Assembly: GCA_028110365.1 (NCBI GenBank)
Contig: JAOGVT010000004.1
Span: forward strand, 4,926 to 68,925
From: Flavobacteriales bacterium
GTDB taxonomy: Bacteria; Bacteroidota; Bacteroidia; Flavobacteriales; UBA7430
Reading direction: 5' to 3'
DNA length: 64,000 bases
Made by a program: the position numbers and the translations under genes. Positions within the stretch are counted from its first letter, which is position 1. Each line of letters starts with the position of its first letter. Of this stretch, positions 17,135-36,017 are shown piece by piece. The notes under the pieces are model-generated. The model was not told the DNA's origin. It made no database searches and saw only the letters and a program-made list of their open reading frames with translations.

Positions 17135-17345
17135 TAAATATAGATTTGTTATATGCTAATATAACTAAAAAGTAAAAATATATGTCTCATAACCTACCAA
17201 ATGGTATAATGGGATTATAAAATTTTTTAAGTTATAGTAAACCCATACAGGTAGTATAATTTCGCTTCAAATAGTATAAATTAACATAATATCTTTGTGT
17301 AAAATTATACCATTAAGCATAATTTACTTATTTTTGAAATGCATT

Positions 17346-17494
17346 AAGAGTTACTATAAAGTATGCCAACCGATCTTTAACCAAGGCGCGGTGGAAATTA
17401 TGTGAGACAACCGTCTAAAAATTAAATTGGTTATCCATAATTTATATTGACGCAATGTTTTTGACATAAACTGTCACAAACGTTTTATTTATTT
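17346..17494 (+). ncRNA. structured RNA-like element A1 with terminator-like hairpin
   Basis: Conserved 5' block AAGAGTTACT..AGTATGCCAACCGATC..CGGTGGA. Predicted stems are CAACCG/CGGTGG, UCUU/AAGG, AAUUAUG/CAUAAUU and AGAC/GUCU. This is followed by GTTTTTGACA-taaac-TGTCACAAAC and a T-rich run (17457-17494). Confidence 0.4.
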
Positions 17495-17509
17495 GTACAA
17501 CAATACATC

Positions 17510-17631
17510 AAGAGTTACTCTGAGTATGCCAACCGATCCTTTCCGGGCACGGTGGATTGAATGTGAAGCAATCTGCTTAAAAACAAAGGAATTCCTTTCA
17601 CATTGTTCTTGGTGTTTAAATTTATTTAAAC
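17510..17631 (+). ncRNA. structured RNA-like element A2 (paralogue of A1); abuts the ORF start
   Basis: It has the same 5' block, with predicted stems UCC/GGG, AAUGUGA/UCACAUU and AAGC/GCUU plus an A-rich tail. A U-rich tract follows, then the ATG at 17632. Confidence 0.4.
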
Positions 17632-18147
17632 ATGAATGAGATGAAATCAGAAATCAAAGAAATTAGAACCATTAGTGGTGAACTTATCGATTTTGTATGG
17701 GGCCTAGATGATCATACCCCAATCGAAATTTTTTACCGTGATGGAAGTCGTGAACTCAATTGTACTCCGTTTAAGTTAAAAGAGCCTGCTCGGTTTTATA
17801 CAAATCGTGCAGCTGTTGTTCATAGAGCATGGCGAGAAAAAATGGATAAAAAGAGAGAATTTATGGATCGATATGAATCGGTTTATTTTCAGAAGTTCCC
17901 TCGCAAGTATTATGAGCGTAAAATTGCTTTAACCATGCAAGAACGCAATCAAGAAAACAAACGATTTGCTTTAAATATAGAAAGTCTAAAGGAGAATTCC
18001 GATGTAATACGATTTGCTATGCCAAGTATGTGTGCAGCTAGCTTCAGTGTAGAAAAAGAATGGCTTCAAAAAAAATCAGGATGGAACTATAGAGTAAAAA
18101 TTAATGCTGAAATTTTAAAAGATGGAAAAATCCAAAAGTCAATTTAA
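17632..18147 (+). CDS. hypothetical 171-aa protein (phage-like); N-terminal 107 codons are duplicated at 34.9 kb
   Basis: ORF with no motif recognised. Its 5' part is inside the direct repeat. Confidence 0.5.
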   Translation: MNEMKSEIKEIRTISGELIDFVWGLDDHTPIEIFYRDGSRELNCTPFKLKEPARFYTNRAAVVHRAWREKMDKKREFMDRYESVYFQKFPRKYYERKIALTMQERNQENKRFALNIESLKENSDVIRFAMPSMCAASFSVEKEWLQKKSGWNYRVKINAEILKDGKIQKSI

Positions 18148-18418
18148 AGTAGGGGATAAGGTGCTTTGTATGAACGATGCATTTAGTGTTAAAGACCCGC
18201 AAGTGATGTTTATGAATTTTCCTAAAAAGGGTCGTGAATATACGATTCGTGGTTTTTGTGGTCTTGGAATATCTATGTGGTTAGAAGAAATAGTAAACCA
18301 ACCCTTACCTGGACGAAATGAAATATGGTTTTACAATTGGCATTTCAGGAAAAAAGAAAATTTGCTGATTAAAATTAAAGCATCTAAAACGAAAGTCAAA
18401 GAATTAGAATTAGTCTAG
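18122..18418 (+). CDS. small 98-aa protein, paralogue of the next ORF
   Basis: Shares FKVGDKVLCMNDAF..FPKKGREYTIR..WLEEI with FKKGDKVLCLNSDF..FPSGAKVYIVR..YLEHI in the next ORF. Confidence 0.5.
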   Translation: MEKSKSQFKVGDKVLCMNDAFSVKDPQVMFMNFPKKGREYTIRGFCGLGISMWLEEIVNQPLPGRNEIWFYNWHFRKKENLLIKIKASKTKVKELELV

Positions 18419-18733
18419 ATGTCATTTATTAAAAACCTTAAAATTAAAATTATGAAATTTAAAAAAGGTGATAAGGTATTGTGCTTGAATTCAGATTTCG
18501 AGAAAAAAGTACCAAATGCAAAATTTCCTTCAGGAGCTAAAGTTTATATTGTAAGGTCATATTCAGAAGAATGGGACACGTTATACTTGGAGCATATTTA
18601 TAACCCAAAATTATATACAAAAAAAGGGATGTGTGAAATTGGTTTTGCTTCCTGGCGCTTTGCTTTATTAAAAGACGATATTAATTATCAAAAATTTGAC
18701 AATCCAGGTAAATGGAGAAAAATTAGATTTTAA
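18419..18733 (+). CDS. small 104-aa protein, paralogue of the previous ORF
   Basis: See the previous entry. It starts immediately after the preceding stop. Confidence 0.5.
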   Translation: MSFIKNLKIKIMKFKKGDKVLCLNSDFEKKVPNAKFPSGAKVYIVRSYSEEWDTLYLEHIYNPKLYTKKGMCEIGFASWRFALLKDDINYQKFDNPGKWRKIRF

Positions 18734-18839
18734 GTTAAATACTAAGCTATGAGTTTTACAGAGATTTCTAATCTTACTGTTGGTGTTCTTTTTCTATTTT
18801 GGTTTATAAGACGAATGTTTAATGATTTAAAATAATTTC

Positions 18840-19634
18840 ATGAAAGAACTCTCTTTAATAGAACTTGTGGAGTCTGATAATTTTTCTTCAATTTCAAGTG
18901 AGTATATGTGTTTTCAAAAATCAGTCAAAGGTGTTTTCCCAAGCAATGTAATAGCATCTAGATTATTTAGAGAATTAATAGATCATTACAGCTTGTCAAA
19001 ATTAACTGATAATCAATTAATTGAAGGGTTAAACCTATTTGTTAAAACTCCAAATTTAACTAGTGATAGACAAAAAATACTTTTAAAGGAATTTAAATAT
19101 AGACGTATAGATTTTAGTGATATTTTCAATGAAGGTAGATTAATGCATTACAAAGTTCGACTTGAAGGAAAGAATATTGTAATTGCTGGAGATGTATCGG
19201 CTATTTATAAAGCTAAGATTTATGATCAAGCTGCACGAATGAATAATGATATAGATAAAGCTATCCATTATTCAACTAAGGCAATAGAATTAGATTCAAC
19301 TAAATTTGCTTATTGGTTTTTTAGAGGTATTTTACATACAAGAATACCCCCATCACAAAGGTGGTATTACTATGAAGATAACCCTAATGAGTTTAAAATT
19401 AGAATGCAAAATGCGTTAGATGATTTTGATAGATCTATTAGTCTTGTAGACTCTAAAAAGTTTCATGCAATAGCTCATGCAAGAAAAGCCGAAGTCCTCC
19501 ATAGATTGGAAAAAAAACAAAAAACTATTGAGGAAATTACAAAATCATTAAAAGCTGATTACTCAAATAAAGGCATCGACTTTATTTTAAATAAATTGAA
19601 AATTTCAAGACAAAAAATATTGATTGTTAAATAA
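18840..19634 (+). CDS. hypothetical 264-aa protein with TPR-like C-terminal half
   Basis: The segment AIHYSTKAIELDSTKFAYWFFRGILH resembles a TPR. Confidence 0.4.
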   Translation: MKELSLIELVESDNFSSISSEYMCFQKSVKGVFPSNVIASRLFRELIDHYSLSKLTDNQLIEGLNLFVKTPNLTSDRQKILLKEFKYRRIDFSDIFNEGRLMHYKVRLEGKNIVIAGDVSAIYKAKIYDQAARMNNDIDKAIHYSTKAIELDSTKFAYWFFRGILHTRIPPSQRWYYYEDNPNEFKIRMQNALDDFDRSISLVDSKKFHAIAHARKAEVLHRLEKKQKTIEEITKSLKADYSNKGIDFILNKLKISRQKILIVK

Positions 19635-19745
19635 ATGCTATTGAAAATTAACTGCAATTTTAAGAGGTTAATACAAATTGTGAATCGGTTAGAAAAATCT
19701 ATGAAAACTGATTAAGTTTCATTAGATGATGTGTTTGTAAACTCT

Positions 19746-20693
19746 TTATATTCGATTCATGTTTTTTACTATAGTTTCAATAAGCGATTTATTCTGTAGG
19801 CATCTAGTCCAATTATCTGGAATTGAATCAAAACCATAAAATAAACCGGCTAAACTACCAGTAATTGCTCCGTTTGTATCTGTGTCTTCACCAAGGTTTA
19901 TTGCCTTGAGAACTGCATTTTTATAGGAAGATGTTGTTAGAAATGACCAGATAGAACATTCAAGACTATGAATTACATAGCCACTTGATTTTATAGAGTC
20001 TTCATTAAGTTTTGTAATGTCATGATTTAAAATTCTATCAAAATGGACTCGCTCATTTGTGAAATTCTGATTTTTATTAAAAAAATCATTCATTCTTTTC
20101 TTCAATTTAGAATAAGCCTCGGATTTAGTTAATTGATTTGTCAATTCATTGCAAAAAATTAAATATGTCAAACATGAAATAGAAGAACGAATGTGACCAT
20201 GAGTAAGTGCTGAAATATCGTTTATTAAATCAAAGTTATCTTCTTCTTTTTTTTTGCTATTTTTAAAATAAAACAAAAGTGGCAGAATCCGCATCAATGA
20301 ACCATTTCCATTTTGTTTCTCATCAATTGAATAACGAGGTATTTTAAGATTATTTTGTATTGCATTTTTTAAATAGATGAGTGAATTTCGGGTTGTAAAA
20401 CCAATGTCAAAAACTTCACCATTAGCAGTGTAACTTGAATTATCCATCCAGCTGATCATCTTTTTAGAAATATCAATGAGATCTAATTCATCTCCTATTG
20501 CATCTAATAAACACAGCATTAAACTTGTATCATCAGACCATGTTCCTTTTGGTTGATCATGAGTTCCATAGGATAGCATTCCTTCAAGAGGTTCTATTCT
20601 TAATGTACTCCTTGAGCAAAACTCAACCGGAACTCCTAGTGCATCTCCAACAATGAAACCATAAATACTGCCTGTAATTTGATTTTTATCCAT
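19746..20693 (-). CDS. ADP-ribosylglycohydrolase (ARH/DraG family)
   Basis: N-terminus ITGSIYGFIVGDALGVPVEF, then WSDDTSLMLCLLDAI, and C-terminal LGEDTDTNGAITGSLAGLFYG. Confidence 0.8.
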   Translation of the reverse strand: MDKNQITGSIYGFIVGDALGVPVEFCSRSTLRIEPLEGMLSYGTHDQPKGTWSDDTSLMLCLLDAIGDELDLIDISKKMISWMDNSSYTANGEVFDIGFTTRNSLIYLKNAIQNNLKIPRYSIDEKQNGNGSLMRILPLLFYFKNSKKKEEDNFDLINDISALTHGHIRSSISCLTYLIFCNELTNQLTKSEAYSKLKKRMNDFFNKNQNFTNERVHFDRILNHDITKLNEDSIKSSGYVIHSLECSIWSFLTTSSYKNAVLKAINLGEDTDTNGAITGSLAGLFYGFDSIPDNWTRCLQNKSLIETIVKNMNRI

Positions 20694-20808
20694 TTTGTTT
20701 CTTAAAATTCAATTATATATAACCAAACTATTGATTGTTTTATTTGTTTTAAAGATGAAAATCTTTTAATTTAAGATAAATTTTTACACTAATATAAACT
20801 TAAAAATT

Positions 20809-21123
20809 ATGAACAAAAATAATTTATTTCTCGAGCAGGATATACCTATTTTTGATATGGATGAGATAGATGTAAGTACCGATGAATTAAATAAAATTAT
20901 TAAATCAAAAGCACTTTCTGTATTTGTTGATGATTTACCTGCTCATATTTTTATTCGACAGCGGAAAGGATTTATGTCAAATGAAAAAGTGGTAATAATT
21001 TTCGAAGAAAAAAATGAAAGATGGCCTGATGGATTTCATACAAAATATTATATGATTAATACACCTGGAGTTCTCGAATGGGGTCATAACGGTGAAAAGA
21101 TGTCTATTGTTAGACGAACTTAA
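20809..21123 (+). CDS. hypothetical 104-aa protein
   Basis: ORF only. Confidence 0.4.
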   Translation: MNKNNLFLEQDIPIFDMDEIDVSTDELNKIIKSKALSVFVDDLPAHIFIRQRKGFMSNEKVVIIFEEKNERWPDGFHTKYYMINTPGVLEWGHNGEKMSIVRRT

Positions 21124-21224
21124 AAACTTAAGTGCTTATTTAGAAAACAATTATTGATATTAGAAGTAAATGAGTTATCATTCCAATAAAAAAGAAGAGT
21201 ATTTCCATAAAGCAATTAAAAATT

Positions 21225-21890
21225 TTGAGATTTCGTATCTCTGCTAAAGAACTTAAGCACGGTATAACAGATCCAAATCATAAGGAAAATTGGCAATTGT
21301 TTGAACCCTCAAAGTTTATATATTCATTTTTTGCATTTGATATGATTTGTTCTATTGATTGGGCGAAGTCAATTATGAAAAAGAACTTAGTTTACTTAAA
21401 TGGAGGTATATTTAAAAATAAACTTAATAATTTACTGGATTTCCTTCATGCTAATAATTGTATTGATTTTAGAGAATGTTATTCCCAATTTGATCCTAGA
21501 TTCAAATTATTAGAAAATTCAAAAAAAATTCAACTTGATTTTAATATTAGAAAATATGATAATTCTAAATATGGACAAGGGAACACCATAATGTCAAATT
21601 ATATAACATCTGCTGATAATTTAGCAGAAGGCAATTTTGAAATCGATTCTCATTATAAATTACTTTTTTTTACATATCAGATTAGAAATAATATTTTTCA
21701 TGGTACGAAGACTATAAGCCACATGTTACTAGACGAACAAAGAGAGAGACTTATTGACTATACAAATATATTATTATCAACTCTAGAGCAGCTATTTAAC
21801 ATACTAGAAAAGGAAATTGATTATTATCGCTCTGATTCATCTGATATAGTAGAAAATTTACCTAGCACATATCGAAGTTTAATGATATAA
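21225..21890 (+). CDS. HEPN-like (Abi/Apea-type) protein; start uncertain
   Basis: R-x4-H motif in FFTYQIRNNIFHGTK. The track start is TTG. A 25-codon ATG ORF (21170-21247) overlaps it in another frame. Confidence 0.4.
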   Translation: MRFRISAKELKHGITDPNHKENWQLFEPSKFIYSFFAFDMICSIDWAKSIMKKNLVYLNGGIFKNKLNNLLDFLHANNCIDFRECYSQFDPRFKLLENSKKIQLDFNIRKYDNSKYGQGNTIMSNYITSADNLAEGNFEIDSHYKLLFFTYQIRNNIFHGTKTISHMLLDEQRERLIDYTNILLSTLEQLFNILEKEIDYYRSDSSDIVENLPSTYRSLMI

Positions 21891-21912
21891 TATATTTATT
21901 TTGAGTTGAATT

Positions 21913-21939
21913 AGTCTGTTCCAACGGACTTCTATTTTG
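21913..21939 (+). terminator. hairpin AGTCTGTT-cc-AACGGACT followed by T-rich run
   Basis: Lies between the convergent HEPN ORF and the methyltransferase gene. Confidence 0.4.
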
Positions 21940-21953
21940 TCAATACAAAAATC

Positions 21954-23198
21954 TTATCGATTTAGAGTAAAGTAAATTGCAATTGCTATATTTTTTGCCA
22001 TCATTGGTGGAACTGCATTGCCGATCATTTTATAATTATAACCCATTCTTTCTTTAAAAATAAAATCCTCAGGAAAAGATTGAAGAGATGCTGCTTCTCT
22101 AACTGTAATTGATCTTGATTGTTTTTCATCGGGATGAATAAACATCAACCCATCTTTGTATAGATGTGCTACAATAGTAGGGGAGGGCTTATTCCAATCA
22201 AGACTTCTGTATTTTCCGTGTGAAGATTTTTTCCCTACTAAATCATTATAGAATTTAATTTTTACATCAGAATTCCAACTATTCATATTGTTTTTTAGCC
22301 AATTTGAAAAGACTTTTATATCACGCTGATTTTGATATCTTGGAATTAGGTCATCGCTAAGATCAATATTCTCTATAGCCTTATATGAAGTCTTTCGACC
22401 ATATATTTTTTCAGTTTTATTTGAGGGCTTAAATTTTGGTAAATGAGATATAGCGTGGTGAACAGTGGAGTGCTTTTTTACAAATTGTTTTTTAATTTCA
22501 TTGTAAATTGAGTGTAGCTTTAGATCACTAGAATTCGCTGTTTTAATTCCAATAATAATAACTCTATTTCTTTTTTGAGGAACTCCTAAATCAGCTGCAG
22601 AGAATACAGCATTTTTAAGATCTTTAGAAGGAGGAATTTCGTAGCCTATTTTTTTAAATGCTTCATAAATTCGTTCTGTTACAGGTTTTCCTCCAGGCTG
22701 GGCACTTAACATTCCGGGTACATTTTCAAAGACAAATACAGTTGGTCTAAATTCATCAACTACTTTAACAAAACTCTCAAACAAGTAGTTTCTGTAGTCA
22801 TCTTTCATGGAGTTTTTATCCTGAGCTCTTCCTGCAATCGAATAGGCTTGACATGGAGGACCTCCAATGATTAGATCAACCTTTTTATTGCCAACTAAAG
22901 AGCGAAGACCACCATTTATTATTTGCTTGTGATTTGTTGCTCCATAATTTTTTAAAGTTCCCTTTCCCCAATTTCCATTAATTAATTCCTTTGTCTTTTG
23001 AATGTCAAAATGAATAACTCGTTTAAGAGAATCTTCATTGGAGTGTTTCCAACGATCTGTTAGACGATGACGAAGCGTTCTAACCATTGGTATTTCCCAT
23101 TCAACATGAGCCAACCCTTCATACTTATTAGAAGATAAAAACCCTTCGGAGAGACCTCCGCAACCTGCAAATAAATCAATGAAAGTCAATTTCTTCAT
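21954..23198 (-). CDS. DNA (cytosine-5)-methyltransferase
   Basis: Motifs FIDLFAGCGGLSEGF (I), GGPPCQAYS (IV), ENVPGM (VI), QKRNRVIIIG (VIII) and GNAVPP (X). Confidence 0.9.
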   Translation of the reverse strand: MKKLTFIDLFAGCGGLSEGFLSSNKYEGLAHVEWEIPMVRTLRHRLTDRWKHSNEDSLKRVIHFDIQKTKELINGNWGKGTLKNYGATNHKQIINGGLRSLVGNKKVDLIIGGPPCQAYSIAGRAQDKNSMKDDYRNYLFESFVKVVDEFRPTVFVFENVPGMLSAQPGGKPVTERIYEAFKKIGYEIPPSKDLKNAVFSAADLGVPQKRNRVIIIGIKTANSSDLKLHSIYNEIKKQFVKKHSTVHHAISHLPKFKPSNKTEKIYGRKTSYKAIENIDLSDDLIPRYQNQRDIKVFSNWLKNNMNSWNSDVKIKFYNDLVGKKSSHGKYRSLDWNKPSPTIVAHLYKDGLMFIHPDEKQSRSITVREAASLQSFPEDFIFKERMGYNYKMIGNAVPPMMAKNIAIAIYFTLNR

Positions 23199-24601
23199 TG
23201 TGTCATTTTATTTAGTGTGTCAATGAATTGCTCTGCAATAATACTAGCAAGAGCTGGAGGTACCGCATTGCCTATTTGCTTGAATTGGTTTCGAGTGCTT
23301 CCAGTGAAAAAATACCAATCTGGAAATGATTGAATTCTAGCAGCTTCTCTAGGTGTAATACTTCTAGGCTTTTCTCCAGGATGAACATAAGAGTTTCCAT
23401 CTGTCTCAAGATGTGCTATTATTGTCTTTGACACTGAGTTTGGATTTAGTTTAAAGTATTTGTCTCCAAATCCTTTTACTTGTTTTTCACCTTTTTCATT
23501 TATGTGAACTCCATAGGTGACTTTAGACAGTGCTTTTTTGTTCACAGGATCATTTAGGTACTTCCCTGGAACTAAATTCTTGTATATAAATAAATCTCTT
23601 TTGTTATGATATCTTGATTTGTGATTAAATAGGAAGGGTGTTTTTATTTTTTTACCCTTGTAATTATTAATCAATTTTAGGTATTTCTTGTTGCTATTAG
23701 ACAGGAGTTTATTGTATGTAATCTCTGAGATGTTCTTTCCAAAACACTTAGAATTTGAATAAGATACTTCACTTTCTTCTTTGTAATTATTAGGTTTTGG
23801 ATTTGCAGAAATTTTAGGCAAGTCACCAATCACATCATTAACACATAAGTTGCTTGTTTTTTGATCTAATATTGCCTTAAAAACATCTACTGCTTTTATG
23901 CTATTATTTTCAGCTAGATCTTTTCTGATTCCTATGAAAAATATTCTTTCTCTATGTTGAGCTAATCCAAAATCTTTCGCATTTAAAACCTCAGATGATA
24001 CATCATATCCGAACTCTCCGGTATTCTTAAGAGCTATTTCAATTAAGTCTCTATAACCTGATGCTGAAACCAAACCTTTTACATTTTCAATCAACACAAT
24101 TTTTGGATTTAATTTCTCAGCAAACTTTAGATAGTACTTGAAAAGTTGATTTCTAGGATCGTCAATAAATCCTTTAGCTCTTTCTTCGGCTGTCATCTTT
24201 TTTGATCTCCCAATCATAGAAAAGCCTTGACAGGGGGGGCCACCAACTAATACATCTGTTGACTTAATGTTATGAAGTATGTTCTGTACGTCTATATTCT
24301 CTTTTAGTGAATCAGTCTTTCTTTTTAGCTCTTCCTCTCTGTTGGTTTTAACTACTGCATGACCAACAACTTCTTTTTTTACTTTTTCTAATCCAAGAAA
24401 CTCATAAAGTTCAATGATATCTCCTAGTACAACTTTACTTTTATCTGTCTTAGGATGAGTTTGCTTTAAATTGTGTTTTAATGTGTTTAGTGCAGGTCTT
24501 GAAATATCATTTGCCAAGTCAAGGTGAAAACCTTTATTACCAAAGCCAACTGTAAGTCCGCCAGCTCCGCAAAACATGTCTATATATGAGTAATTTTTCA
24601 T
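23195..24601 (-). CDS. DNA (cytosine-5)-methyltransferase (second, distinct)
   Basis: Motifs DMFCGAGGLTVGF, GGPPCQGFS, IENVKGL, QHRERIFFIG and GNAVPP. A 4-nt ATGA overlap with the downstream MTase suggests translational coupling. Confidence 0.9.
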   Translation of the reverse strand: MKNYSYIDMFCGAGGLTVGFGNKGFHLDLANDISRPALNTLKHNLKQTHPKTDKSKVVLGDIIELYEFLGLEKVKKEVVGHAVVKTNREEELKRKTDSLKENIDVQNILHNIKSTDVLVGGPPCQGFSMIGRSKKMTAEERAKGFIDDPRNQLFKYYLKFAEKLNPKIVLIENVKGLVSASGYRDLIEIALKNTGEFGYDVSSEVLNAKDFGLAQHRERIFFIGIRKDLAENNSIKAVDVFKAILDQKTSNLCVNDVIGDLPKISANPKPNNYKEESEVSYSNSKCFGKNISEITYNKLLSNSNKKYLKLINNYKGKKIKTPFLFNHKSRYHNKRDLFIYKNLVPGKYLNDPVNKKALSKVTYGVHINEKGEKQVKGFGDKYFKLNPNSVSKTIIAHLETDGNSYVHPGEKPRSITPREAARIQSFPDWYFFTGSTRNQFKQIGNAVPPALASIIAEQFIDTLNKMTQ

Positions 24602-24679
24602 TATCGCTAATATACATTTCTGCCTAAATTTAATTCACGTTTTCATAAAATAATTGCTAACAAATTATTTAAGCATGTT

Positions 24680-24705
24680 GACAATTGTCCGTTGTACAAT
24701 TGTCA
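24680..24705. promoter_or_regulatory. C-box-like double palindrome GACAATTGTC-N6-ACAATTGT
   Basis: Sequence tGACAATTGTCcgttgtACAATTGTca, 15-40 nt upstream of the controller-protein gene. Confidence 0.5.
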
Positions 24706-24719
24706 TCATTTAGATTACT

Positions 24720-24959
24720 TTGAATATGACAAAAATAAAGGCACTAATTGGTTTAAAAATCAAAGAATTAAGACAAAAGGAATCATTGTCTCAGGAGAAG
24801 CTTGCTGAGTTAGCAAATATTGATAGAACATATATTCATGATATAGAAAAGGGCTCTAGAAACATTTCCGTTTTTGTACTTGAGAAATTATGTAGTGCAC
24901 TGAAAATTAAATTGTCAGATTTATTTAATCAAATAGAATCTAATGAAAAGACTTATTAA
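24720..24959 (+). CDS. XRE-family HTH, R-M controller (C) protein-like; probable ATG at 24726
   Basis: The block LRQKESLSQEKLAELANIDRTYIHDIEKGSRNISVFVLEKLCSAL is a classic Cro/C1 HTH, and the protein has C-protein size. Confidence 0.7.
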   Translation: MNMTKIKALIGLKIKELRQKESLSQEKLAELANIDRTYIHDIEKGSRNISVFVLEKLCSALKIKLSDLFNQIESNEKTY

Positions 24960-25215
24960 AGAAATTATTCAATTCAGGGATGAAAGAGATTGGAAGCAAT
25001 TCCATACTCCTAAGAATTTAGCTTTAGCTATTTCAATCGAAGCAGCTGAATTAAATGAATTATTTCTATGGAAAAGTGATAATGAATCAACTCATGTTGA
25101 TTCAAATAAAATTTCAGATGAGCTTGCCGATGTACTTATTTATTCAATATTAATGGCTGATTCTATGGACTTTGATCTTGATGAAATTATTTTGTCAAAG
25201 TTAAAAAAGAATTGA
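24943..25215 (+). CDS. MazG-type nucleotide pyrophosphohydrolase (small, single-domain)
   Basis: FRDERDWKQFHTPKNLALAISIEAAELNELFLWK...ELADVLIY has the EEXXE-like metal motif. Confidence 0.7.
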   Translation: MKRLIKEIIQFRDERDWKQFHTPKNLALAISIEAAELNELFLWKSDNESTHVDSNKISDELADVLIYSILMADSMDFDLDEIILSKLKKN

Positions 25216-25268
25216 ATTAATTATCCCATTGAAAAATCTAAAGGATGTAGCAAAAAATACACTGATCT

Positions 25269-27407: not shown

Positions 27408-27412
27408 CATCT

Positions 27413-28828
27413 ATGTATAACTCAATAAACATTTTTGAGCTACAAAAAAACAAACCTATAGGTGATGATGTCAATTTTGATGTCAATGAAATTAACCATG
27501 CTCTCCAAAATATATGGGATAATAAATATGCCTTTCATAGTTTGTCAGATAATTTCTCAAGTGAATCAAAAGATCAAAAATTTCTGACTATTAATGAAAA
27601 TTCAATAGAAGCCGGAAAATATATTGGCGTTATTAAAACCAAGAGTGCTACAATTAATATTTTTCCAAAAATATTTGATACTGAAGAAAACAGAACTCGA
27701 ATAAATGATAGAGATTTTCATCAATATGTTTTTTCTCATTTAATATGGTGGATGTCTTTTTCAGATAAAATTAGATTTCCAAAAGTATACTCTTCTTTTG
27801 ATTCTACAACAAATACTGATTTACTCGAATTATTGGTGTATAACTTTGCTTATTATACAGAAGAACTCATTAATACTTATTCTTATAGTTCTTATGAACT
27901 AGTTTCTGAAAATCTTTCTCAGGTAAAGGGGAAAATTAATTTTAATCAATATATTTCAAACATTGCTTCTGGTAATTGGCATCAGATTCCTTGCGAGTTT
28001 GATGAGTTTAGATTTGATAATCAGTTAAATAGGATTATAAAATATGTTTGTAAAGAACTTTTGCTTCCATATATTCAAAATTCAAATACTAAAAATTTAT
28101 TAACTTCAATCATTCATTCCTTAGATGAAGTCCAGGATGAATTTGTGACTCTTGAAGATTGTGATAAGGTTATGCTTAACCCATTATATGAAGAGTATGT
28201 TTTAGTTCTTGACTATTGCAAAATGTTTCTATCAAATAGCATTGTAAGTGCTGATTCAAAAGACAATACTATTTTCTCATTTGTTATAGAGTCCTCAAAA
28301 TTATTCGAAAACTTTATTGAAGGATTTATTAAAAAGAATAAGGCAAGTGTCGGTGTTAAAAAAATTCACACCCAAAAAGGAAAATATATTGGAAAGGATC
28401 TTGAAACTAAACAATCTATTTTTAAAACTTCAATTGATTTCTTGATAGAAAAAGATGATACAGAAAAAGTTTTAGTTGATGCAAAATACAAGCGTGTTTG
28501 GGCGGAAAAAGGAGAGGGCAAAAAAAGAAATTATGGAATAGAAAGTGCTGACATATATCAGATGCTGGCTTATTCAAATCTTCATAAAATTCCTAAGGTG
28601 ATTTTATTTTATCCTTTATATTTTGATGAGGACGATAATATCTCGCACGCATTTGAATTTGATAATCAGGCAAATAAATTAAATAAAGTAAATATTGAGG
28701 CTAGAACACTTCCATTAATTAATCACGATGAAAATAAATTCAAAGGGTCACATTTTAAATTAAATGATATTTTTTCATCTAATAATGATGAAATATGTAA
28801 ATTGTTAAGTGGCCTATATCAGAAATAA
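27413..28828 (+). CDS. McrC-like PD-(D/E)XK nuclease subunit
   Basis: Lies immediately downstream of the McrB-like gene. Core SIDFLIEK...VLVDAKYKRVW...DIYQMLAY. Confidence 0.7.
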   Translation: MYNSINIFELQKNKPIGDDVNFDVNEINHALQNIWDNKYAFHSLSDNFSSESKDQKFLTINENSIEAGKYIGVIKTKSATINIFPKIFDTEENRTRINDRDFHQYVFSHLIWWMSFSDKIRFPKVYSSFDSTTNTDLLELLVYNFAYYTEELINTYSYSSYELVSENLSQVKGKINFNQYISNIASGNWHQIPCEFDEFRFDNQLNRIIKYVCKELLLPYIQNSNTKNLLTSIIHSLDEVQDEFVTLEDCDKVMLNPLYEEYVLVLDYCKMFLSNSIVSADSKDNTIFSFVIESSKLFENFIEGFIKKNKASVGVKKIHTQKGKYIGKDLETKQSIFKTSIDFLIEKDDTEKVLVDAKYKRVWAEKGEGKKRNYGIESADIYQMLAYSNLHKIPKVILFYPLYFDEDDNISHAFEFDNQANKLNKVNIEARTLPLINHDENKFKGSHFKLNDIFSSNNDEICKLLSGLYQK

Positions 28829-28844
28829 TTTTTAATGATTTAAA

Positions 28845-30539
28845 ATGAAAAAAGAAATAATCCCAGCATCAGCAAGTCGAGTAGTTCAAGCATTATCTAA
28901 TATTGGCTACTCGCTCCAATCTTCTATTTGTGATATTATAGATAATTCTATTTCTCATGGTGTAGCGAATAATATTTATATCTGTTTTGATTATTTAGAA
29001 CCTAAAGCTAAGTTCTATTTTATGATTTATGATGATGGAAAATCTATGTCTGAATCAAAACTAAAAGATGCAATAAGATTAGGTAGTTCCAAAGAAAATT
29101 ATTTGGATGATGATCTAGGGAAATTTGGAATGGGTTTAAAAACTGCATCTTTAGCTCATTGTAATACTTTGTCAGTGATTGCTAAACAAAAAAAATCAAA
29201 AAAATCAAGTTGTGTTATTTTAGATAAGATTTTAATTCAGTCAGAGGATAAATGGGTTTATTCCATTTTAAATGATGAGGAAATTAATGAAAAATATTTA
29301 GAGTTAAAACAAATTTTAAAAAGATGTTACACCAAAGAGAAGTTTTTTTTAAGTGACACTTCATATACTTTTTTAGTTTGGGAAGATCTTTTTTTAATGA
29401 AAAACAAAAGTGATAAAGCATCATCAGGTGCTCAGATATCTAGACAAATCACTAAAGAACAATTAATAGTTGAAGCTCATTTAAGAATGGTATTTCATAG
29501 ATTTTTAAATGAAGAAAATGGAGCTAGAAAAGTAAATATATATTTTAATGGTTCAAAATTAAATGGATGGAATCCCTGCTTACCGAATTTAAAAAACACT
29601 GTTAAATACACTGATAAAAATCAGGCTAATAAAGAATATTTGGGCTTTAAGTTTGATCCACATAAATCAGAAGTAAAGATAAAAAGATACATTCTCCCTA
29701 AGAAAAGTGAAATAGAGAAATATTCTGATAAAGAAGATTTGATAATAACAGAAAAATCTCATACAAACAAAGTTATGAAAATTGATAAATGGCAAGGCCT
29801 ATATTTTTATAGAAATAACAGGTTAATTGATTATGGAGGATGGTATGATGGGACAGGTACAGAGCCACATATAACATATGCAAGAGCTTCAGTTGATTTA
29901 ACTTCAGATCATGATCAATATTTCAGTCTAAATATTAATAAATCAAAAATTAGTATTGATAATTCTTTTAAAACTTTCCTAAAAGAAAACATGCCAAAGT
30001 TTAGGCAAAAAGCAAAAGAGCTTTATGGCAAAAAGAAAGTAGAAACCAAAAACTCAGTTAGAGATAGTTCTGATAAGTTAAAAGAAATTATAAAAGTTGA
30101 GGGAGATAAAAATGAAATAGAAATTAAAGGTCCAAACCGAAATAATGATAAAACTAATGTTGTTGAAGTTTCTAATATTATTGGAAAGTTTGTTGATCAC
30201 GATAAAAAATATTTAAAACAATCAAGTGAGTTACTGAAAAAGAAAATAATTTCTGAAGAACTCTCTGATGACCAACTTCTATGGGAAGTAATTCCTGACC
30301 CACATAATGTTATGCTTGTTAAAATTAATTCTCTCCACGAAATTTATAAATTATATTATGAAGACGAGAATAAAAAAAATGAAAAGATCACAGCAGTAAT
30401 TGACTCGATTATAATTTCATTAGCATTCACTGAATTGTGTTACAAAACAGAAAAAACAGAACAACTTTTTGAAGATATAAATAGAACAACTGGAAAATTA
30501 TTGAATAAGCTAGTTGATAATAAAATTGTTAAAAAATGA
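28845..30539 (+). CDS. GHKL (HATPase_c_3 / MORC-like) ATPase
   Basis: SICDIIDNSISHG (N box), IYDDGKSMS (G1) and LGKFGMGLKTASLA (G2). Confidence 0.75.
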   Translation: MKKEIIPASASRVVQALSNIGYSLQSSICDIIDNSISHGVANNIYICFDYLEPKAKFYFMIYDDGKSMSESKLKDAIRLGSSKENYLDDDLGKFGMGLKTASLAHCNTLSVIAKQKKSKKSSCVILDKILIQSEDKWVYSILNDEEINEKYLELKQILKRCYTKEKFFLSDTSYTFLVWEDLFLMKNKSDKASSGAQISRQITKEQLIVEAHLRMVFHRFLNEENGARKVNIYFNGSKLNGWNPCLPNLKNTVKYTDKNQANKEYLGFKFDPHKSEVKIKRYILPKKSEIEKYSDKEDLIITEKSHTNKVMKIDKWQGLYFYRNNRLIDYGGWYDGTGTEPHITYARASVDLTSDHDQYFSLNINKSKISIDNSFKTFLKENMPKFRQKAKELYGKKKVETKNSVRDSSDKLKEIIKVEGDKNEIEIKGPNRNNDKTNVVEVSNIIGKFVDHDKKYLKQSSELLKKKIISEELSDDQLLWEVIPDPHNVMLVKINSLHEIYKLYYEDENKKNEKITAVIDSIIISLAFTELCYKTEKTEQLFEDINRTTGKLLNKLVDNKIVKK

Positions 30540-33184
30540 AAAATATTGAAGATCAGTTACTCTATACATTTAGTTATTTGAAATTAAGTGATGAAATTAA
30601 AAATGACGCTATAATAAGTAAGTCTTCTATTAAATCTTGTGTTCAAGAATTTCATAAAACAATGTTCTCAGATGAACCTAAATCTTTGATAGATGAAGTT
30701 ATTTTAATGCTTGAGGAAAAATTCGAGTATGACATAAATAAAAATTCGTTAAGTGTTGAAACAGGAATTACCCTTTCGAATCCAAAAAAACATGTAGAGT
30801 GGTCTCCCAAAAATGGTTTTTATTGGGAAACTCACAAAAAATTTATAACAGAAGTTTATAAAGAGAAGGACCCTGAAAATTGGTCAAAAATATTAAAATC
30901 GATAGATCAAGAAACAGACATTCTTCTTTCTTTAATGGAGAACCCCATCAGAGATGAATTTGATTCAAAAGGACTTGTAATTGGTTATGTTCAAAGTGGT
31001 AAAACTGCAAATTTTACTGCGCTATTAAGTAAAGCAATGGATTCAGGCTATAAGCTAATCATTGTCCTTGCAGGGATGCACAATTCATTGAGAGTTCAAA
31101 CACAGTCAAGATTAGATACTGAATTATTTGGTTATAATGATTTAGATAATGAAGATAATAATATTTCAAAGTTTTATTTTGATAATGATGAAGTACACAG
31201 AAATAGAAGGCCAATTAGAGTTACAAAAACCGCATATATTGATGTGTTTGATGATACTATCAATGATGGAGAATTTAGAGATAACATTGAAAAATTAAGT
31301 GATCTTATTGAAATTCATGAAAAATACAATAAAGTTGTAGCAGTAGTTAAAAAAAATGTTACTGTATTGAAAAAGTTTAATAAGTGGTTAGAAAGATGTC
31401 CAGAAGATCTTAGGCGTAAGATTCCACTACTAATAATAGATGATGAAGCTGATCAGGCATCTATTGATGGTAATTATGTCAGTAATGTTAGAAAAGGAAA
31501 TGACATTGAATCAAATGTAACCGAAACAAATAATCAAATTCTTAGCATAATAGAAAAATTTTTAAAAAGTAGTTTTATTGGATATACAGCAACACCATTT
31601 GCTAATTGTTTTATACATCCTAATTTCAGAGGGCTTTATCCCCATAACTTTATACATTTTTTGCCTAAACCAGAACAATATTTTGGTGCTGAAAAGATAT
31701 TTGGTGATGAAGAATTAAAAGATGCCTATGTGGTGTCCAAAGAAATTGAAACAAAAAAAATAGCAACTGATAAGTTATTAAATGAAGAACTGCCTGATTC
31801 ACTCAATAGGGCAATTATGAGTTTTTTAATCACAATCGGAATTAGGATTTTGAGAGGAGACATCAATCAACCTATGTCTATGCTTATTCATATTGATCAT
31901 TTAATTACCACTCAACAAAATACATTTATAGCAGTAGATGCAAGGCTTAAAGAGACTGTCAGTATAATCAATAAAAATACTCCTTCATCACAAAAGTTTA
32001 TTGCTGATTTACAAACAGAATATAATTTCATTAAAGAAAAATCAATTATTTTGTCTAAAAGAGATAAAGTAAAAAGAGAATTATTTTCTTTTGAAGAAGT
32101 CCTTAAAATATTAAAATCACATCTTAACAGCATCCAAGTAAAACAGGTTCATAGTAGATCTGAAGATGATTTAAATTACATTGCAAATCCAAATCAAAAG
32201 GTTATAGCAATAGGTGGTAATAAGTTATCAAGAGGATTAACACTAGAAGGATTAGTAACAACATATTTTTTACGAAATACAATGCTTGCTGATACCCTGA
32301 TGCAAATGGGTAGATTTTTTGGTTACAGAGGAAAATATAGTGACCTAATGAAAATTTTCTGTCATGAAAATATTTTAGATTCCTTTGAATATTTAATTGA
32401 TCTAGAAACGGATCTTAGATTAGAGGTTAGTCGATATGAATCAGAAGGTAAAACACCTGAAGATTTTTCTCCAAGCGTAAGATCTCATGTTAAAATGAAG
32501 CCATCAGGAAAAATGGGGAATGCTCAAAGATTTAAGCATGCATTTGGGTCTAGTATTATTCAAACAAAGTATTTTGATTTACATAATAAATCTAGTCTTG
32601 AAAGTAACCTTGACCTTACCATTAACCTTTTGAATGATTTAGATAAAAATCACACACTCGAATCTCCAAAAAATAAAAAGAAGAATGGTAAATTATTTTA
32701 CTCTATAACGTCAGACCATATTATAAATTATTTAGAAAATTTCATAATAAAAGATTATGATATTAACACAAGTGATGTAATAAACTATTTAAAAAACAAT
32801 AATATTGAACATTTCAATTTAGGTGTTTCTGATTTGAAAAATTCAAACAAGAAACCTTTTGGTAACATTGGGGAATTTAGCTTAGTTAGTAGAAGTAGAA
32901 AGAAGAATATACACCAAAATGGTCAATACAATATTGGTGTTTTAAGTGCTCCTGAACTAGTTGACTTTGATCTAGCAGAGGATGAAGAGAGAGAACTTCC
33001 CTTAATAGTAATTTATAGGATTGATAAAAATAGTAAGCCAAAGAATCCAAACTCTACTAATAGAGAAGATTTATTTAAAGGGTTTTCTGATAATGATAAG
33101 ACTGATATGGTTGGATTTACAATAACTTTTCCATCTTCAAAACAAAAAGAGTTTGATGTGTGGGGGCAATTATTTGACAAATGA
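30536..33184 (+). CDS. Z1-domain protein (P-loop NTPase)
   Basis: VIGYVQSGKTANFTALLSKAMDSGYKLIIVLAG, a DEAD-like LLIIDDEADQAS, and a 4-nt overlap with the upstream gene. Confidence 0.75.
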   Translation: MKNIEDQLLYTFSYLKLSDEIKNDAIISKSSIKSCVQEFHKTMFSDEPKSLIDEVILMLEEKFEYDINKNSLSVETGITLSNPKKHVEWSPKNGFYWETHKKFITEVYKEKDPENWSKILKSIDQETDILLSLMENPIRDEFDSKGLVIGYVQSGKTANFTALLSKAMDSGYKLIIVLAGMHNSLRVQTQSRLDTELFGYNDLDNEDNNISKFYFDNDEVHRNRRPIRVTKTAYIDVFDDTINDGEFRDNIEKLSDLIEIHEKYNKVVAVVKKNVTVLKKFNKWLERCPEDLRRKIPLLIIDDEADQASIDGNYVSNVRKGNDIESNVTETNNQILSIIEKFLKSSFIGYTATPFANCFIHPNFRGLYPHNFIHFLPKPEQYFGAEKIFGDEELKDAYVVSKEIETKKIATDKLLNEELPDSLNRAIMSFLITIGIRILRGDINQPMSMLIHIDHLITTQQNTFIAVDARLKETVSIINKNTPSSQKFIADLQTEYNFIKEKSIILSKRDKVKRELFSFEEVLKILKSHLNSIQVKQVHSRSEDDLNYIANPNQKVIAIGGNKLSRGLTLEGLVTTYFLRNTMLADTLMQMGRFFGYRGKYSDLMKIFCHENILDSFEYLIDLETDLRLEVSRYESEGKTPEDFSPSVRSHVKMKPSGKMGNAQRFKHAFGSSIIQTKYFDLHNKSSLESNLDLTINLLNDLDKNHTLESPKNKKKNGKLFYSITSDHIINYLENFIIKDYDINTSDVINYLKNNNIEHFNLGVSDLKNSNKKPFGNIGEFSLVSRSRKKNIHQNGQYNIGVLSAPELVDFDLAEDEERELPLIVIYRIDKNSKPKNPNSTNREDLFKGFSDNDKTDMVGFTITFPSSKQKEFDVWGQLFDK

Positions 33185-34131
33185 AAATAGATTGGAATAT
33201 TAATTATGCCGGAAATGCTGAACCTATTGCCACATACAAGGCAGATAAACTATACGAAAGAGTTTATTATTACCAAGATGAGAATAGTTTTAGATCTTTT
33301 TTCATCATTTGTGATGAATCTAAATTTCAAGATTTTATAAAATTAAAATCCCTTGAAATTAAATATGAAGAATCAGAATCAAGGTATCAAATAACCTCAG
33401 TCGATCATGACTTTAACGATACTTTTGAAAGATTATTTCTAGAAATGTTTGATTTAATGATAAGTGAAGACATTATATTTTTAAATGCTTATAATCATAT
33501 TATTGAAAAATATAAATCTTTCTTAATGAAAGATATATTACTATCAAAAGAAAAACAAATTGGTTTACTTGGTGAGCTAAATCTACTTAGAGATATATTG
33601 AAAATCGATAGTAAAAAGATTGAATGTTGGATTGATTCTAATGAGGATTTTCGTATAAATAATACATATATTGAAGTAAAATCATCCAGGTCTAAAGAAC
33701 ATAAACACATAATTAATGGCCTTGCTCAATTAACAGTAATTCCTAACACAACTAAATTTTTATTTTCGAGTTTAGTAACTGATTATGATAAATATAAATG
33801 TAAAAGTTCTTTCAACCTTTTTGAGGTAGCTGAAAAAATCCTTGATATTATTGATTTAAGTGACAAAAATAATTTTTTAGATAAATTACGTAAAAGAGGA
33901 TATTATCACATTGAATCAGGCGAGGCATATAAAGATTTTAATTATGTTTTTTATGAGACAAAGGTCATAGAGATTTATAAAGGTTTTCCTTGTCTAAATC
34001 TAAATACTTTTGAAGAGTCAATTTATTCTAATGTAAATCCTGAATCTATTAAATATGAACTTCGTCTTTCAAATCTTTTGAGTAAGTCAATTTCATATGA
34101 TATAAGATTTATTGAGAATTTATTTAATTAG
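33181..34131 (+). CDS. PD-(D/E)XK-motif protein of the Z1 cassette
   Basis: QIGLLGELNLLRDIL...DFRINNTYIEVKSS gives an E...D...E-x-K arrangement. There is a 4-nt overlap with the Z1 gene. Confidence 0.55.
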   Translation: MKIDWNINYAGNAEPIATYKADKLYERVYYYQDENSFRSFFIICDESKFQDFIKLKSLEIKYEESESRYQITSVDHDFNDTFERLFLEMFDLMISEDIIFLNAYNHIIEKYKSFLMKDILLSKEKQIGLLGELNLLRDILKIDSKKIECWIDSNEDFRINNTYIEVKSSRSKEHKHIINGLAQLTVIPNTTKFLFSSLVTDYDKYKCKSSFNLFEVAEKILDIIDLSDKNNFLDKLRKRGYYHIESGEAYKDFNYVFYETKVIEIYKGFPCLNLNTFEESIYSNVNPESIKYELRLSNLLSKSISYDIRFIENLFN

Positions 34132-34498
34132 TGTGTTTTACATAAAAAAAATAACCAAACAAGACGAAACAAGGACTCCGCTTGTTTCAAAAAGAGCAGT
34201 TAGTATTTTTTTTAATAAAAATCTATTTGATAGAAATGATTCTGTATATATTCAATTAACTTATACTAATACTAAAAAAGAGATTCTTACTCAAATTAAA
34301 AAGAAACAAGATTATAGAATATATTTAGAAAAAGATTACTTAGAATTTTTTTTTGAAGGCAATATTTTAGTTTATAATAAAAAAGAAGCTGAGTTTACTT
34401 TAACATGTTTTAATAGGTATCATGAAGAGTATAAGTTTTTTGATTCATTAATTACAAGTAAAGGTAATAACCTCTTATTAGAAAAATTAACCTTATAG
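34112..34498 (+). CDS. hypothetical 128-aa protein (TTG start in track; doubtful start)
   Basis: ORF only. It occupies the position where an AIPR gene is often found, but is far too short to be one. Confidence 0.3.
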   Translation: MRIYLISVFYIKKITKQDETRTPLVSKRAVSIFFNKNLFDRNDSVYIQLTYTNTKKEILTQIKKKQDYRIYLEKDYLEFFFEGNILVYNKKEAEFTLTCFNRYHEEYKFFDSLITSKGNNLLLEKLTL

Positions 34499-34614
34499 TA
34501 TATATGTCTTCACAATCTTTAAGTATTGTTTCAAATATATTTATTAAATCTTACATCTTTTTTAAAGGGATTTTCTCATTCAATAGAATTTCATTAATTT
34601 GTAATTAGTACATT

Positions 34615-34912
34615 AAGAGTTACTTTAAAGTATGCCAACTGATCTTTAGCCAAGGCTCGGTGGAAAATTATGTGAGACAACCGTCTAAAAATTTAATAGG
34701 TTATCCCTAAATTATATCAATGCAAAGTTTTTGACATAAACTGTCACAAACGGTTTATTTATTTGTATAACCAATACATCAAGAGTTACTCTGAGTATGC
34801 CAACCGATCCTTTCCGGGCACGGTGGATTGAATGTGAAGCAATCTGCTTACAAACAAAGGAATTCCTTTCACATTATTCTTGGTGTTTAAATTAATTTAA
34901 AACATTGAAGAG
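34615..34912 (+). ncRNA. second pair of structured RNA-like elements (B1, B2)
   Basis: B1 has C->T in the CAACCG arm (CAACTG), which still allows a U-G pair with CGGTGG. B2 is almost identical to A2. The terminator-like hairpin is conserved at 34727-34751. Confidence 0.4.
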
Positions 34913-35215
34913 ATGAAATCAGAAATTAAAGAAATAAAGACCATTAGTGGTGAACTTATTGATTTTGTATGGGGCCTAGATGATCATATCCCAATCGAAG
35001 TTATTTACCAGGACGGAAGTCGTGAACTCAATTGCACTCCGTTTAAATTAAAATAGTCTGCTCAATTTTATACAAATCGTGCAGCTTTTGTTCATAGGGC
35101 ATGGCGAGAAAAAATGGATATAAAGAGAGCGTTTATGGATCGATTTATTTTCAGAAGTTTCCTCGCAAGTATTATGAGCGTAAAATTGCTTTTAACCATA
35201 CAAGAACGCAATCAA
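34913..35215 (+). pseudogene. decayed copy of the 5' part of the 171-aa ORF
   Basis: In-frame TAG at 35054 where copy 1 has GAG. A 10-nt deletion (atgaatcggt) relative to 17871-17880 shifts the frame. Confidence 0.7.
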
Positions 35216-35229
35216 TAAAAAAAACAAGC

Positions 35230-35574: not shown

Positions 35575-36017
35575 TATTAGGTCTAAGCCGATAATAATCT
35601 AATCAAGTATCTAAGCTGAAAATTAGTAAAACAGTTTATTATTTAGGCTTATTTTAATGTACTTACTAGTTTTCTGAAATTTAGATTAAATTGTGAATAG
35701 CATTATATTTCCCTAAATACAGAAGATGAATTAGTTATAGATATTACTAATTTGATTGTTAATTAGCTTTCACATCCCATCAAAAGTATAAAACTAGCCT
35801 AAACTTATACCAACTTATATCAAACCCCATTATAGGTCATTACTTTATATCAACAGAGTATAAAATAGCATAAAGTTGTAGGGCAATTTATACTATAAAA
35901 CATATAAAGTTATTTTTAAAAACAACCAGTTCATCTAGACTGGGTTCGTATTATTCGCGCTATTTAAACTCTTAATTATTTAATGCTAACTCAAATCGGT
36001 AGAATTTATATTCGGAG

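Follow-up and report, generated by a model that had tools for sequence, protein, structure and literature searches.

A riboswitch-led direct repeat brackets a 16-kb defence cargo block in a tRNA-Ser island of an uncultured marine Flavobacteriales bacterium

The 64,000-nt stretch of DNA analyzed here, which we call the window, corresponds to C34:4926-68925 (contig JAOGVT010000004.1) of a 57%-complete, 67-contig metagenome-assembled genome (MAG; G000), and it contains a low-GC integrative defence island of more than 43 kb at a tRNA-Ser gene of an uncultured marine member of the Flavobacteriales. Three features by which tRNA islands are recognized were found: the integrase gene adjoins the tRNA gene and lies 78 nt from it, GC content shifts from 27–31% between the left contig end and the tRNA gene to 36–40% beyond it, and relatives differ in the presence or absence of the island. 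The tRNA 3′ end has no second copy of 14 nt or more on the contig, and the island runs off the left contig end. Within the island, two collinear direct repeats lie 17.27 kb apart with a set of defence genes between them. Each consists of a tandem leader of two S-adenosylmethionine (SAM) riboswitch aptamers followed by the 5′ part of an open reading frame (ORF), ORF171. The repeats, the genes that accompany them and the integrase end of the island are as follows.

17342–17962, plus strand: repeat copy 1, the complete 5′ part of an island module (tandem riboswitch leader and ORF171 codons 1 to about 110), delimited by alignment.
17632–18147, plus strand: ORF171, intact, the first gene of the core operon, a conserved rare protein with a likely start at 17641.
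18122–18418, plus strand: ORF98, the second core operon gene, a paralogue of ORF104 in conserved context.
18419–18733, plus strand: ORF104, the third core operon gene, a paralogue of ORF98 in conserved context.
18750–18833, plus strand: putative hydrophobic mini-ORF of 27 aa, whose 3′ end contains the left cargo junction and whose start codon is absent in the related contig L027.
34611–35225, plus strand: repeat copy 2, a truncated stump of the module, delimited by alignment and 100% identical in contig L017.
34913–35225, plus strand: pseudogene of the ORF171 5′ part in copy 2, with a TAG at 35054–35056, a 10-nt deletion, a +1 insertion near 35190 and a cut after about codon 108.
35230–35574, plus strand: ORF114, a putative Erf-like single-strand annealing protein of the length of the N-terminal domain, matched by phrog_2324.
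36018–36284, minus strand: HTH_17 excisionase-like gene (Pfam).
36366–37001, minus strand: ORF211, a conserved backbone gene recognized from its contexts in relatives.
37075–38427, minus strand: tyrosine integrase with Arm-DNA-bind_5, Phage_int_SAM_5 and Phage_integrase domains (Pfam).
38506–38591, minus strand: tRNA-Ser(GGA), the integration target, at the site of the GC shift.

Comparison of the window with itself by repeat search yielded one direct-repeat pair, and the source MAG holds these two copies and no more. In the MAFFT alignment, counted per segment, the copies differed by 46 substitutions among 611 aligned bases and by 14 gap columns, corresponding to 92.5% identity over aligned bases and 90.4% with gaps included. 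An earlier note on this DNA had described 17342–17952 and 34611–35215 as the same sequence in the same orientation, with scattered substitutions and small indels; our analysis gave the same picture and moved the right edge about 10 nt further. The note had also read each copy as two RNA-like leaders plus the first ~107 codons of an ORF that is intact in copy 1 and broken in copy 2 by the TAG at 35054 and a 10-nt deletion. This description was accurate; the RNAs match Rfam family RF01725 (SAM-I/IV), and the +1 insertion is an additional lesion. In the 130 nt on either side of the repeats, mismatch is 43–51%, as in unrelated AT-rich DNA. A chance repeat was ruled out, and a composite transposon or cargo bracketed by insertion sequences was rejected as well, the repeat being composed of aptamers and the ORF171 5′ part, with neither a transposase nor terminal inverted repeats. 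The two copies share one perfect tract of 79 nt and several of 24–32 nt, and their substitutions in the ORF part lean to the third codon position (6, 6 and 14 at positions 1, 2 and 3). Copy 1 is 99.4–99.8% identical in three independent contigs (L020, L021 and L040).

The leaders of the two copies contain the following predicted RNA elements.

17336–17432, plus strand: distal SAM-I/IV aptamer of copy 1, RF01725, 43.7 bits, with P1–P4 and a UAACCA/UGGUUA pseudoknot.
17454–17497, plus strand: inter-aptamer hairpin with the core TGACA-N5-TGTCA followed by a U-rich tract, from folding; stability z of −0.7 to −1.6, not significant.
17500–17594, plus strand: proximal SAM-I/IV aptamer of copy 1, RF01725, 43.7 bits, the sole aptamer type in single-aptamer relatives.
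17595–17640, plus strand: leader with an alternative helix; in minimum-free-energy and centroid folds CACAUU is paired to AAUGUG, the 3′ strand of P1, and the partner of the pseudoknot is sequestered in an AAAGG/CCUUU hairpin.
34605–34702, plus strand: distal SAM-I/IV aptamer of copy 2, 40.4 bits, all helices kept, with changes from C-G to U·G, from A-U to G·U or in loops.
34771–34865, plus strand: proximal SAM-I/IV aptamer of copy 2, 36.5 bits, identical to copy 1 over the 79 nt at 34772–34850.

Both copy 1 aptamers exceed the gathering score of the RF01725 covariance model (41.1 bits), and relatives of the island provided 13 further matches above it, the best with 47.4 bits. Pairing was checked in 21 aptamers whose helix strands were extracted by sequence anchors, MAFFT alignment offsetting the 3′ strands of P4 and of the pseudoknot between aptamer types. 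Canonical pairs occupied 418 of the 420 helix cells. Compensatory changes were found in the P3 inner helix (U-A for C-G; U·G for G-C or C-G) and in P4 (G-C/A-U swaps at two positions), and the pseudoknot that joins the P3 loop to the 3′ tail was seen in at least four covarying versions (UAACC/GGUUA, UUCC/GGAA, UGCC/GGUA and UACUU/AGGUA). P2 is a plain 4-bp hairpin without an internal loop, and SAM-I/IV is a variant class in which P2 lacks the internal loop (Weinberg et al. 2010, PMC2864571). Judged by score, P1–P4 architecture and covariation, the aptamers of the window and its relatives are genuine members of the SAM-I/IV class. In copy 2, both aptamers have kept all four helices and the pseudoknot, the changes being wobble-preserving or in loops, and the proximal aptamer differs between the copies at 1 of 95 positions, compared with 8–12% in the neighbouring segments. 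Tandem and single-aptamer leaders both occur within the island family; the host MAG contains no further SAM-I/IV copy. A related Flavobacteriales genome carries an aptamer of the same class (L005, G037:C16:10101-10196, 52.3 bits) upstream of an NhaC-family (Na_H_antiporter) gene, possibly a methionine transporter, which shows the ordinary use of the class within the same order. By contrast, no recognizable connection with methionine or SAM metabolism was seen for the genes behind the window aptamers (ORF171, ORF98 and ORF104), which have no match in Pfam, NCBIfam, PHROGs or the PDB.

The inter-aptamer palindrome TGACA-N5-TGTCA is found at 17462–17478 and 34733–34749, and its core is also kept in three relatives (L024, L031 and L032). 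It could serve as a weak terminator, as the expression platform of the distal aptamer, as a −35-like element for the proximal aptamer or as a protein operator. An intrinsic-terminator scan of the leader, inter-aptamer hairpin included, returned none, and the hairpin was no more stable than shuffled sequences. Downstream of the proximal aptamer, the predicted anti-P1 helix and the sequestering hairpin would form the kind of competing structure expected of an expression platform. In characterized SAM riboswitches, SAM binding turns expression off; by analogy, SAM would turn off the core operon.

Of the proteins encoded by this operon, ORF171 is rare and well conserved, with 32 metagenome homologues and 9 clusters in a set of 1.84e9 representatives, where it matched only its own tiny family, and it had no match in Pfam, NCBIfam, PHROG or the PDB. 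Its AlphaFold (AF2) model had a mean predicted local distance difference test (pLDDT) score of 46, too poor for a structure search. For ORF98 and ORF104 (pLDDT 65), the best Foldseek matches in the PDB were ribosomal KOW/SH3-type barrels, which were not significant (E 0.06, template modelling score 0.37). The remnant in copy 2 retains 67% identity to ORF171 over residues 1–119 by tblastn; translation of most ORF171 homologues begins at the second ATG (MKSEIKEIR), and the missing first ATG of copy 2 therefore probably does not count as a lesion. ORF114 matched phrog_2324 with an E value of 5.5e-8 over profile positions 2–122 of 193 and had no Pfam or PDB match, so its Erf-like nature is predicted from PHROGs. 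In relatives without cargo ORF114 is the last gene of the riboswitch-led operon, and in the window it directly follows the copy 2 leader.

A survey of relatives, which included 16 further loci beyond those examined first, revealed a backbone shared by about 20 related elements from metagenomes: cargo of variable content, one or two SAM-I/IV aptamers, ORF171-ORF98-ORF104 and sometimes ORF114, followed by HTH_17, ORF211 and the integrase on the opposite strand and then tRNA-Ser. The order in L013 and L015 is representative, with cargo, an aptamer, ORF170-94-93, HTH_17, ORF211, integrase and tRNA-Ser. Upstream cargo differed in nearly every relative, as these examples illustrate.

L011: DUF4007 and GmrSD_N.
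L012: methyltransferase, GHKL, Z1 and DUF4420.
L013: reverse transcriptase and HsdR.
L024: DEAD/MZB/UvrD-like helicases.
L025: C5 methyltransferase and GmrSD.
L031: C5 methyltransferase and NERD helicase.
L036: SNF2, N6/N4 methyltransferase and ResIII.

Seven elements that differ in their upstream genes share homology with the window from 17312–17342 onwards, which is the left edge of the repeat. The module is thus the conserved junction of variable cargo in related integrative islands, as the earlier note had proposed in the second of its two alternatives. L011 and L012 also have this backbone at tRNA-Ser, with different flanking DNA. L015 is 98.6% identical in DNA to window 36013–38583, whereas its module is only 75–81% identical; a nearly identical integrase end combined with a diverged module therefore means that these islands are mosaics. 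Genes are also inserted downstream of the riboswitch: a DUF2779 gene lies between ORF98 and ORF104 in L032 (3052–4530) and L035 (855–2333), and in L026 (5062–7704) ORF104 is separated from HTH_17 by the gene of an 880-aa protein with an Lcl_C domain. The module therefore has a second insertion zone on its downstream side. The repeat was absent from 60 related genomes, these order-level relatives including tiny-genome endosymbionts. No relative was found among IMG/VR viral contigs, and reference genomes yielded one fragmentary match: the uncultured Flavobacteriales MAG CAXFAI010000030 (L039, 10001–10321), the sole species-representative genome with a relative, has a piece of ORF171 at the edge of a contig, where the neighbouring genes are of AcrB, epimerase and glycosyltransferase type and not defence cargo.

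Two relatives retain the module without the cargo, as the earlier note had suggested one might find in related strains. In L019, positions 1–623 correspond to window 18194–18816 (94% identity) and, 33 nt further on, positions 657–1316 correspond to window 35209–35868 (97.6%), such that ORF98-ORF104 and the small hydrophobic ORF lead straight into ORF114. L027 carries ORF171-ORF98-ORF104-ORF114 on one contig with the same spacer as L019. In both, homology to the window ends at 18816, which marks the left cargo junction, and about 36 nt of their spacer is missing from the window. Because two diverged lineages share a spacer of which the window lacks about 36 nt, the cargo-less state appears to be ancestral. 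In the window, the two junctions map to one point of the ancestral ORF104/ORF114 spacer to within about 36 nt, as expected for one insertion. The block so delimited and its right junction are as follows.

18817–35215, no strand assigned: inferred inserted block of about 16.4 kb, from comparison with the cargo-less L019 and L027.
35209–35225, plus strand: 17-nt A-rich microhomology CAATCAATAAAAAAAAC at the right junction, resembling ORF171 17946–17962 (CAATCAAGAAAACAAAC) and the spacer upstream of ORF114 in L019 (CATTCAATAAAAAAAAC).

The part of ORF171 that the right junction resembles covers codons ~105–110, and the right end of copy 2 is accordingly an illegitimate microhomology junction and not a homologous crossover. 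ORF114 sits exactly at the cargo insertion point, sealed at the microhomology.

Taken together, these comparisons lead us to a reading to which we give about an even chance: the repeat is the first 0.6 kb of the backbone module, doubled when one illegitimate insertion brought in about 16.4 kb from a sister island. The recipient site would have been the short spacer between ORF104 and the mini-ORF on one side and ORF114 on the other in the resident island, and the insertion, single, illegitimate and assisted by microhomology, would have introduced the block from 18817 to about 35215. The donor would have been a sister island with cargo upstream of its own module, the canonical layout (compare L012), and the block would comprise the cargo of that island (ARH, two C5 methyltransferases, the McrBC-like pair and MzaB/MzaC/DUF4420) together with the adjoining start of its module. 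Both the single event and the sister-island donor are what we infer from the junctions and the layout. Copy 1 is 97.4% identical to the L024 module and 96.2% to that of L034, compared with ~90.5% to copy 2, and a tree did not support copy 2 as the sister of copy 1; the greater closeness of copy 1 to L024 and L034 therefore argues for import rather than local duplication.

The insertion would also have altered the regulation of ORF114, which in the window is cut off from its original promoter by 16 kb that include genes on the opposite strand. Because the copy 2 aptamers are intact, the proximal one is changed at a single position of 95 and the leader lies directly upstream of ORF114, the copy 2 leader may now supply SAM-responsive transcription to this gene.

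Several observations weigh against this account of the block and its leader. Searches for a donor, an island with the same cargo followed by an intact module, found none, and L042, a contig with an ORF128 homologue, ends at the module; exact look-ups of ORF248 and ORF128 likewise returned no match. Copy 2 sits in a polytomy of the tree, and pseudogene decay may account for some of its branch length. Microhomology was established at the right junction only, the left junction requiring the donor sequence. The family forms arrays with decayed internal integrases (L033) and shows an odd att-like junction inside ORF171 (L043), which makes accretion plausible. Two of the four window aptamers, both in copy 2 (40.4 and 36.5 bits), score below the RF01725 gathering threshold, and the low divergence of the copy 2 proximal aptamer is equally explained by constraint before the insertion or by gene conversion. 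Finally, all evidence comes from metagenome assemblies, and L019 is only 1.3 kb long.

The strongest competitor, though clearly less probable than insertion from a sister island, is tandem accretion, in which two complete related islands integrated successively at tRNA-Ser and the distal island then lost ORF114-xis-ORF211-int-att in one deletion and the proximal one lost ORF171(3′)-ORF98-ORF104 in another. Each cargo block does lie upstream of a module copy, which is the canonical layout, with methyltransferase-GHKL-Z1-DUF4420 preceding the module of L012 much as it precedes copy 2, and the composite keeps exactly one intact copy of each backbone gene. Two relatives are in keeping with such a history. 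In L033 (5626–7245 and 10010–11317), HTH_17 and an integrase split into two ORFs stand upstream of a full riboswitch-ORF168-ORF99-ORF95 module with no tRNA between them, an arrangement that resembles an accreted array whose internal recombination module has decayed. In L043 (2560–2660, JGI 3300055174), the integrase end and the first 8 nt of the tRNA-Ser 3′ end (GCAGAGAG) are joined to ORF171 at about codon 65, with AGAG microhomology at the junction; this may have arisen by integration at a secondary site in ORF171 or by a deletion within a tandem array, or the contig may be chimeric. However, tblastn and blastn-short searches of the interior at 18.8–34.6 kb found no relic of an integrase, ORF211, HTH_17 or att, and the endpoints of two independent deletions would have to coincide on the backbone to within about 36 nt. 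The simple pair of related elements inserted in tandem, the first alternative of the earlier note, is thus not what the interior looks like.

Local segmental duplication, in which slippage or template switching copied the first 0.6 kb of the module within one island and the copies then diverged while the stump decayed, we consider improbable. It would account for the stop and frameshifts of the stump and for the placement of both copies in the same clade, itself a polytomy, among all sequences found. However, copy 1 is 96–97% identical to the L024 and L034 modules, one of which has different upstream cargo, and only ~90.5% identical to copy 2; population variants of the whole island are 97–99% identical, so that the ~8% divergence between the copies must be older; the lean to third codon positions weakly suggests that they diverged while both were coding; and the 16 kb of cargo between them would be left unexplained.

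A mis-join or duplication during metagenomic assembly at a conserved segment, for which the fragmented state of the 57%-complete MAG and the breakage of several related contigs at the module (L042 and an 18.6-kb JGI contig) could be cited, has next to no probability, since the copies differ at 46 positions plus indels, unlike collapsed or duplicated reads, and an independent 49-kb contig, assembled from a different sample, contains the two together. The contigs that bear on this point are listed here.

JGI 3300056356 Ga0494554_000113 (49,363 bp; L040 and L017): both copies with the same cargo between them, 99.4% and 100% identical to the window and ~90% to each other.
L020 (JGI 3300022920) and L021 (ENA ERZ27250256): span ORF248, copy 1, ORF171 and cargo.
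L016 and L018: span Z1, DUF4420, copy 2, ORF114, xis and integrase.
18.6-kb contig of JGI 3300072015: covers the 3′ end of ORF171, the whole cargo, copy 2 and the DNA beyond as far as ORF211.

Every junction between a repeat and its flank recurs in contigs from at least three further samples. Because independent assemblies carry both copies and all four flanks, the repeat pair is not an assembly artefact.

The block contains ORF264, ARH, ORF104b, ORF221, two C5 methyltransferases, an HTH controller, MazG, McrB-like, McrC, GHKL, Z1, DUF4420 and ORF128 genes and copy 2. The earlier list of this cargo was largely right: Pfam and PADLOC support ARH, the two C5 methyltransferases, the AAA_5 McrB-like protein with McrC, and GHKL (MzaB), Z1 (MzaC) and DUF4420 as the trio. 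The HEPN label given to ORF221 (21225–21890) did not hold, this gene having no profile match. Within 28845–34131, PADLOC assigned the GHKL gene product to MzaB (E 1.5e-31) and the Z1 gene product to MzaC (E 1.2e-91); counterparts of MzaA and MzaE were not seen there, and DUF4420 and ORF128 had no PADLOC match. Comparison of window 24946–26188 with L020 (14596–15374) and L040 showed that the MazG gene and the McrB-like N-terminal region are replaced among variants that are otherwise 97–99% identical, and the McrB-like protein is 712 aa long in the window and 666 or 547 aa in other population variants. This replacement suggests swapping of specificity domains. We found no variant in which the same two repeats enclose a different cargo; inside the repeats, samples differ from one another in the McrB N-terminal/MazG segment and in no other part of the cargo, and the cargo to the left of copy 1 varies more. 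That left part of the island contains AAA_15, CARF, DarT/NADAR, WYL, ARPP-1, TPR-CHAT, HIRAN and PD-(D/E)XK nuclease genes. At 8.7–14.4 kb of the window, the TPR-CHAT cluster is replaced by DUF2130 and ORF195 in L020 and by an SNF2 helicase, ORF547 and ORF195 in L040, and HIRAN-PDDEXK-ORF248, to the left of copy 1, is constant across the window, L020 and L040.

The earlier note had pointed out that a single recombination event between the repeats would remove the whole cargo. RecA-type homologous deletion of the 17.27 kb is plausible on sequence grounds, because the repeats share the 79-nt perfect tract and several of 24–32 nt. Together with the cargo, such an event would eliminate the only intact ORF171-ORF98-ORF104, so that just the broken ORF copy stayed behind, and its product was absent from the five contigs with an exact ORF114, four of which have the two-copy layout and one the L019 type. 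Nor are the cargo-less variants products of recombination between the repeats, since L019 and L027 keep ORF98-ORF104 joined to ORF114.

Mosaic integrative islands, cargo hotspots beside conserved backbone genes and accretion are established ideas. Defence hotspots flanked by backbone genes are known from P2/P4-type prophages and satellites, from the phage-defence elements of marine Vibrio and from tRNA-gene defence islands, and the window resembles them in its integrase-borne element at a tRNA gene, its conserved backbone, the defence cargo that differs at fixed junctions and the turnover at population level. It differs in that the conserved junction is a riboswitch-led operon of three unknown proteins and in that cargo was, on the reading we prefer, gained as a sister-island fragment with a backbone stump, which left a 0.6-kb direct repeat. 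Accretion is known from integrative and conjugative elements (ICEs), integrative and mobilizable elements (IMEs) and cis-mobilizable elements (CIMEs), which form tandem arrays at one att site whose internal recombination modules later decay. The island shares with these a composite of two related elements, duplicated backbone segments, one surviving integrase and, in L033, a decayed internal integrase; unlike them, the window lacks an internal att or integrase relic, and both junctions lie at one backbone point, suggesting insertion and not site-specific tandem integration. The repeat geometry is therefore ordinary island mosaicism, and the riboswitch-gated island core is the unusual part.

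The aptamers agree with the SAM-I/IV class (PMC2864571) in P1–P4, the plain P2, the covarying P3-loop pseudoknot and their marine metagenomic origin; unlike the class as described, they occur in tandem, on a mobile defence island and before genes without a recognizable methionine or SAM link. A leader of Pelagibacter ubique likewise has two SAM-sensing aptamers in series (PMC11508383), whereas those of the window are paralogous and of one class, with single and double versions coexisting in one element family. In the literature searched, we found no paper tying SAM riboswitches to defence islands or to phage SAM lyases. What is new here is a base-level view of a multi-system cargo gain, before and after, and a SAM-I/IV riboswitch-led operon as the conserved junction on a defence island.

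The gain and loss of systems by defence islands are mostly inferred from gene content, whereas here cargo-less and cargo-bearing islands can be compared to place a single gain at base resolution: on the reading we prefer, 16 kb with several systems entered a 45-nt spacer, with microhomology at one end, adjacent to the gene of an Erf-like protein that the island itself encodes. The event is marked by the residual 0.6-kb repeat, which makes the block deletable as a unit. At the same time, SAM-I/IV riboswitches stand at the head of the core operon throughout a family of islands in marine Flavobacteriales, a predicted use of the class outside methionine and SAM metabolism. We tentatively suggest, as a doubtful but testable idea, that these islands use the riboswitches as a sensor of their own, with the core operon and the Erf-like protein off while SAM is plentiful and on when it falls. 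SAM could fall when an infecting phage destroys it to evade methylation-dependent defences. If this is true, the behaviour of the island (recombination, capture or mobilization of cargo, or back-up defence) would be coupled to attack on the methyl donor, and the duplicated leader would be a selected feature that kept ORF114 under SAM control after the insertion. The arrangement would thus offer a testable link between the methyl-donor level of the cell and the behaviour of a mobile element or of its defences.

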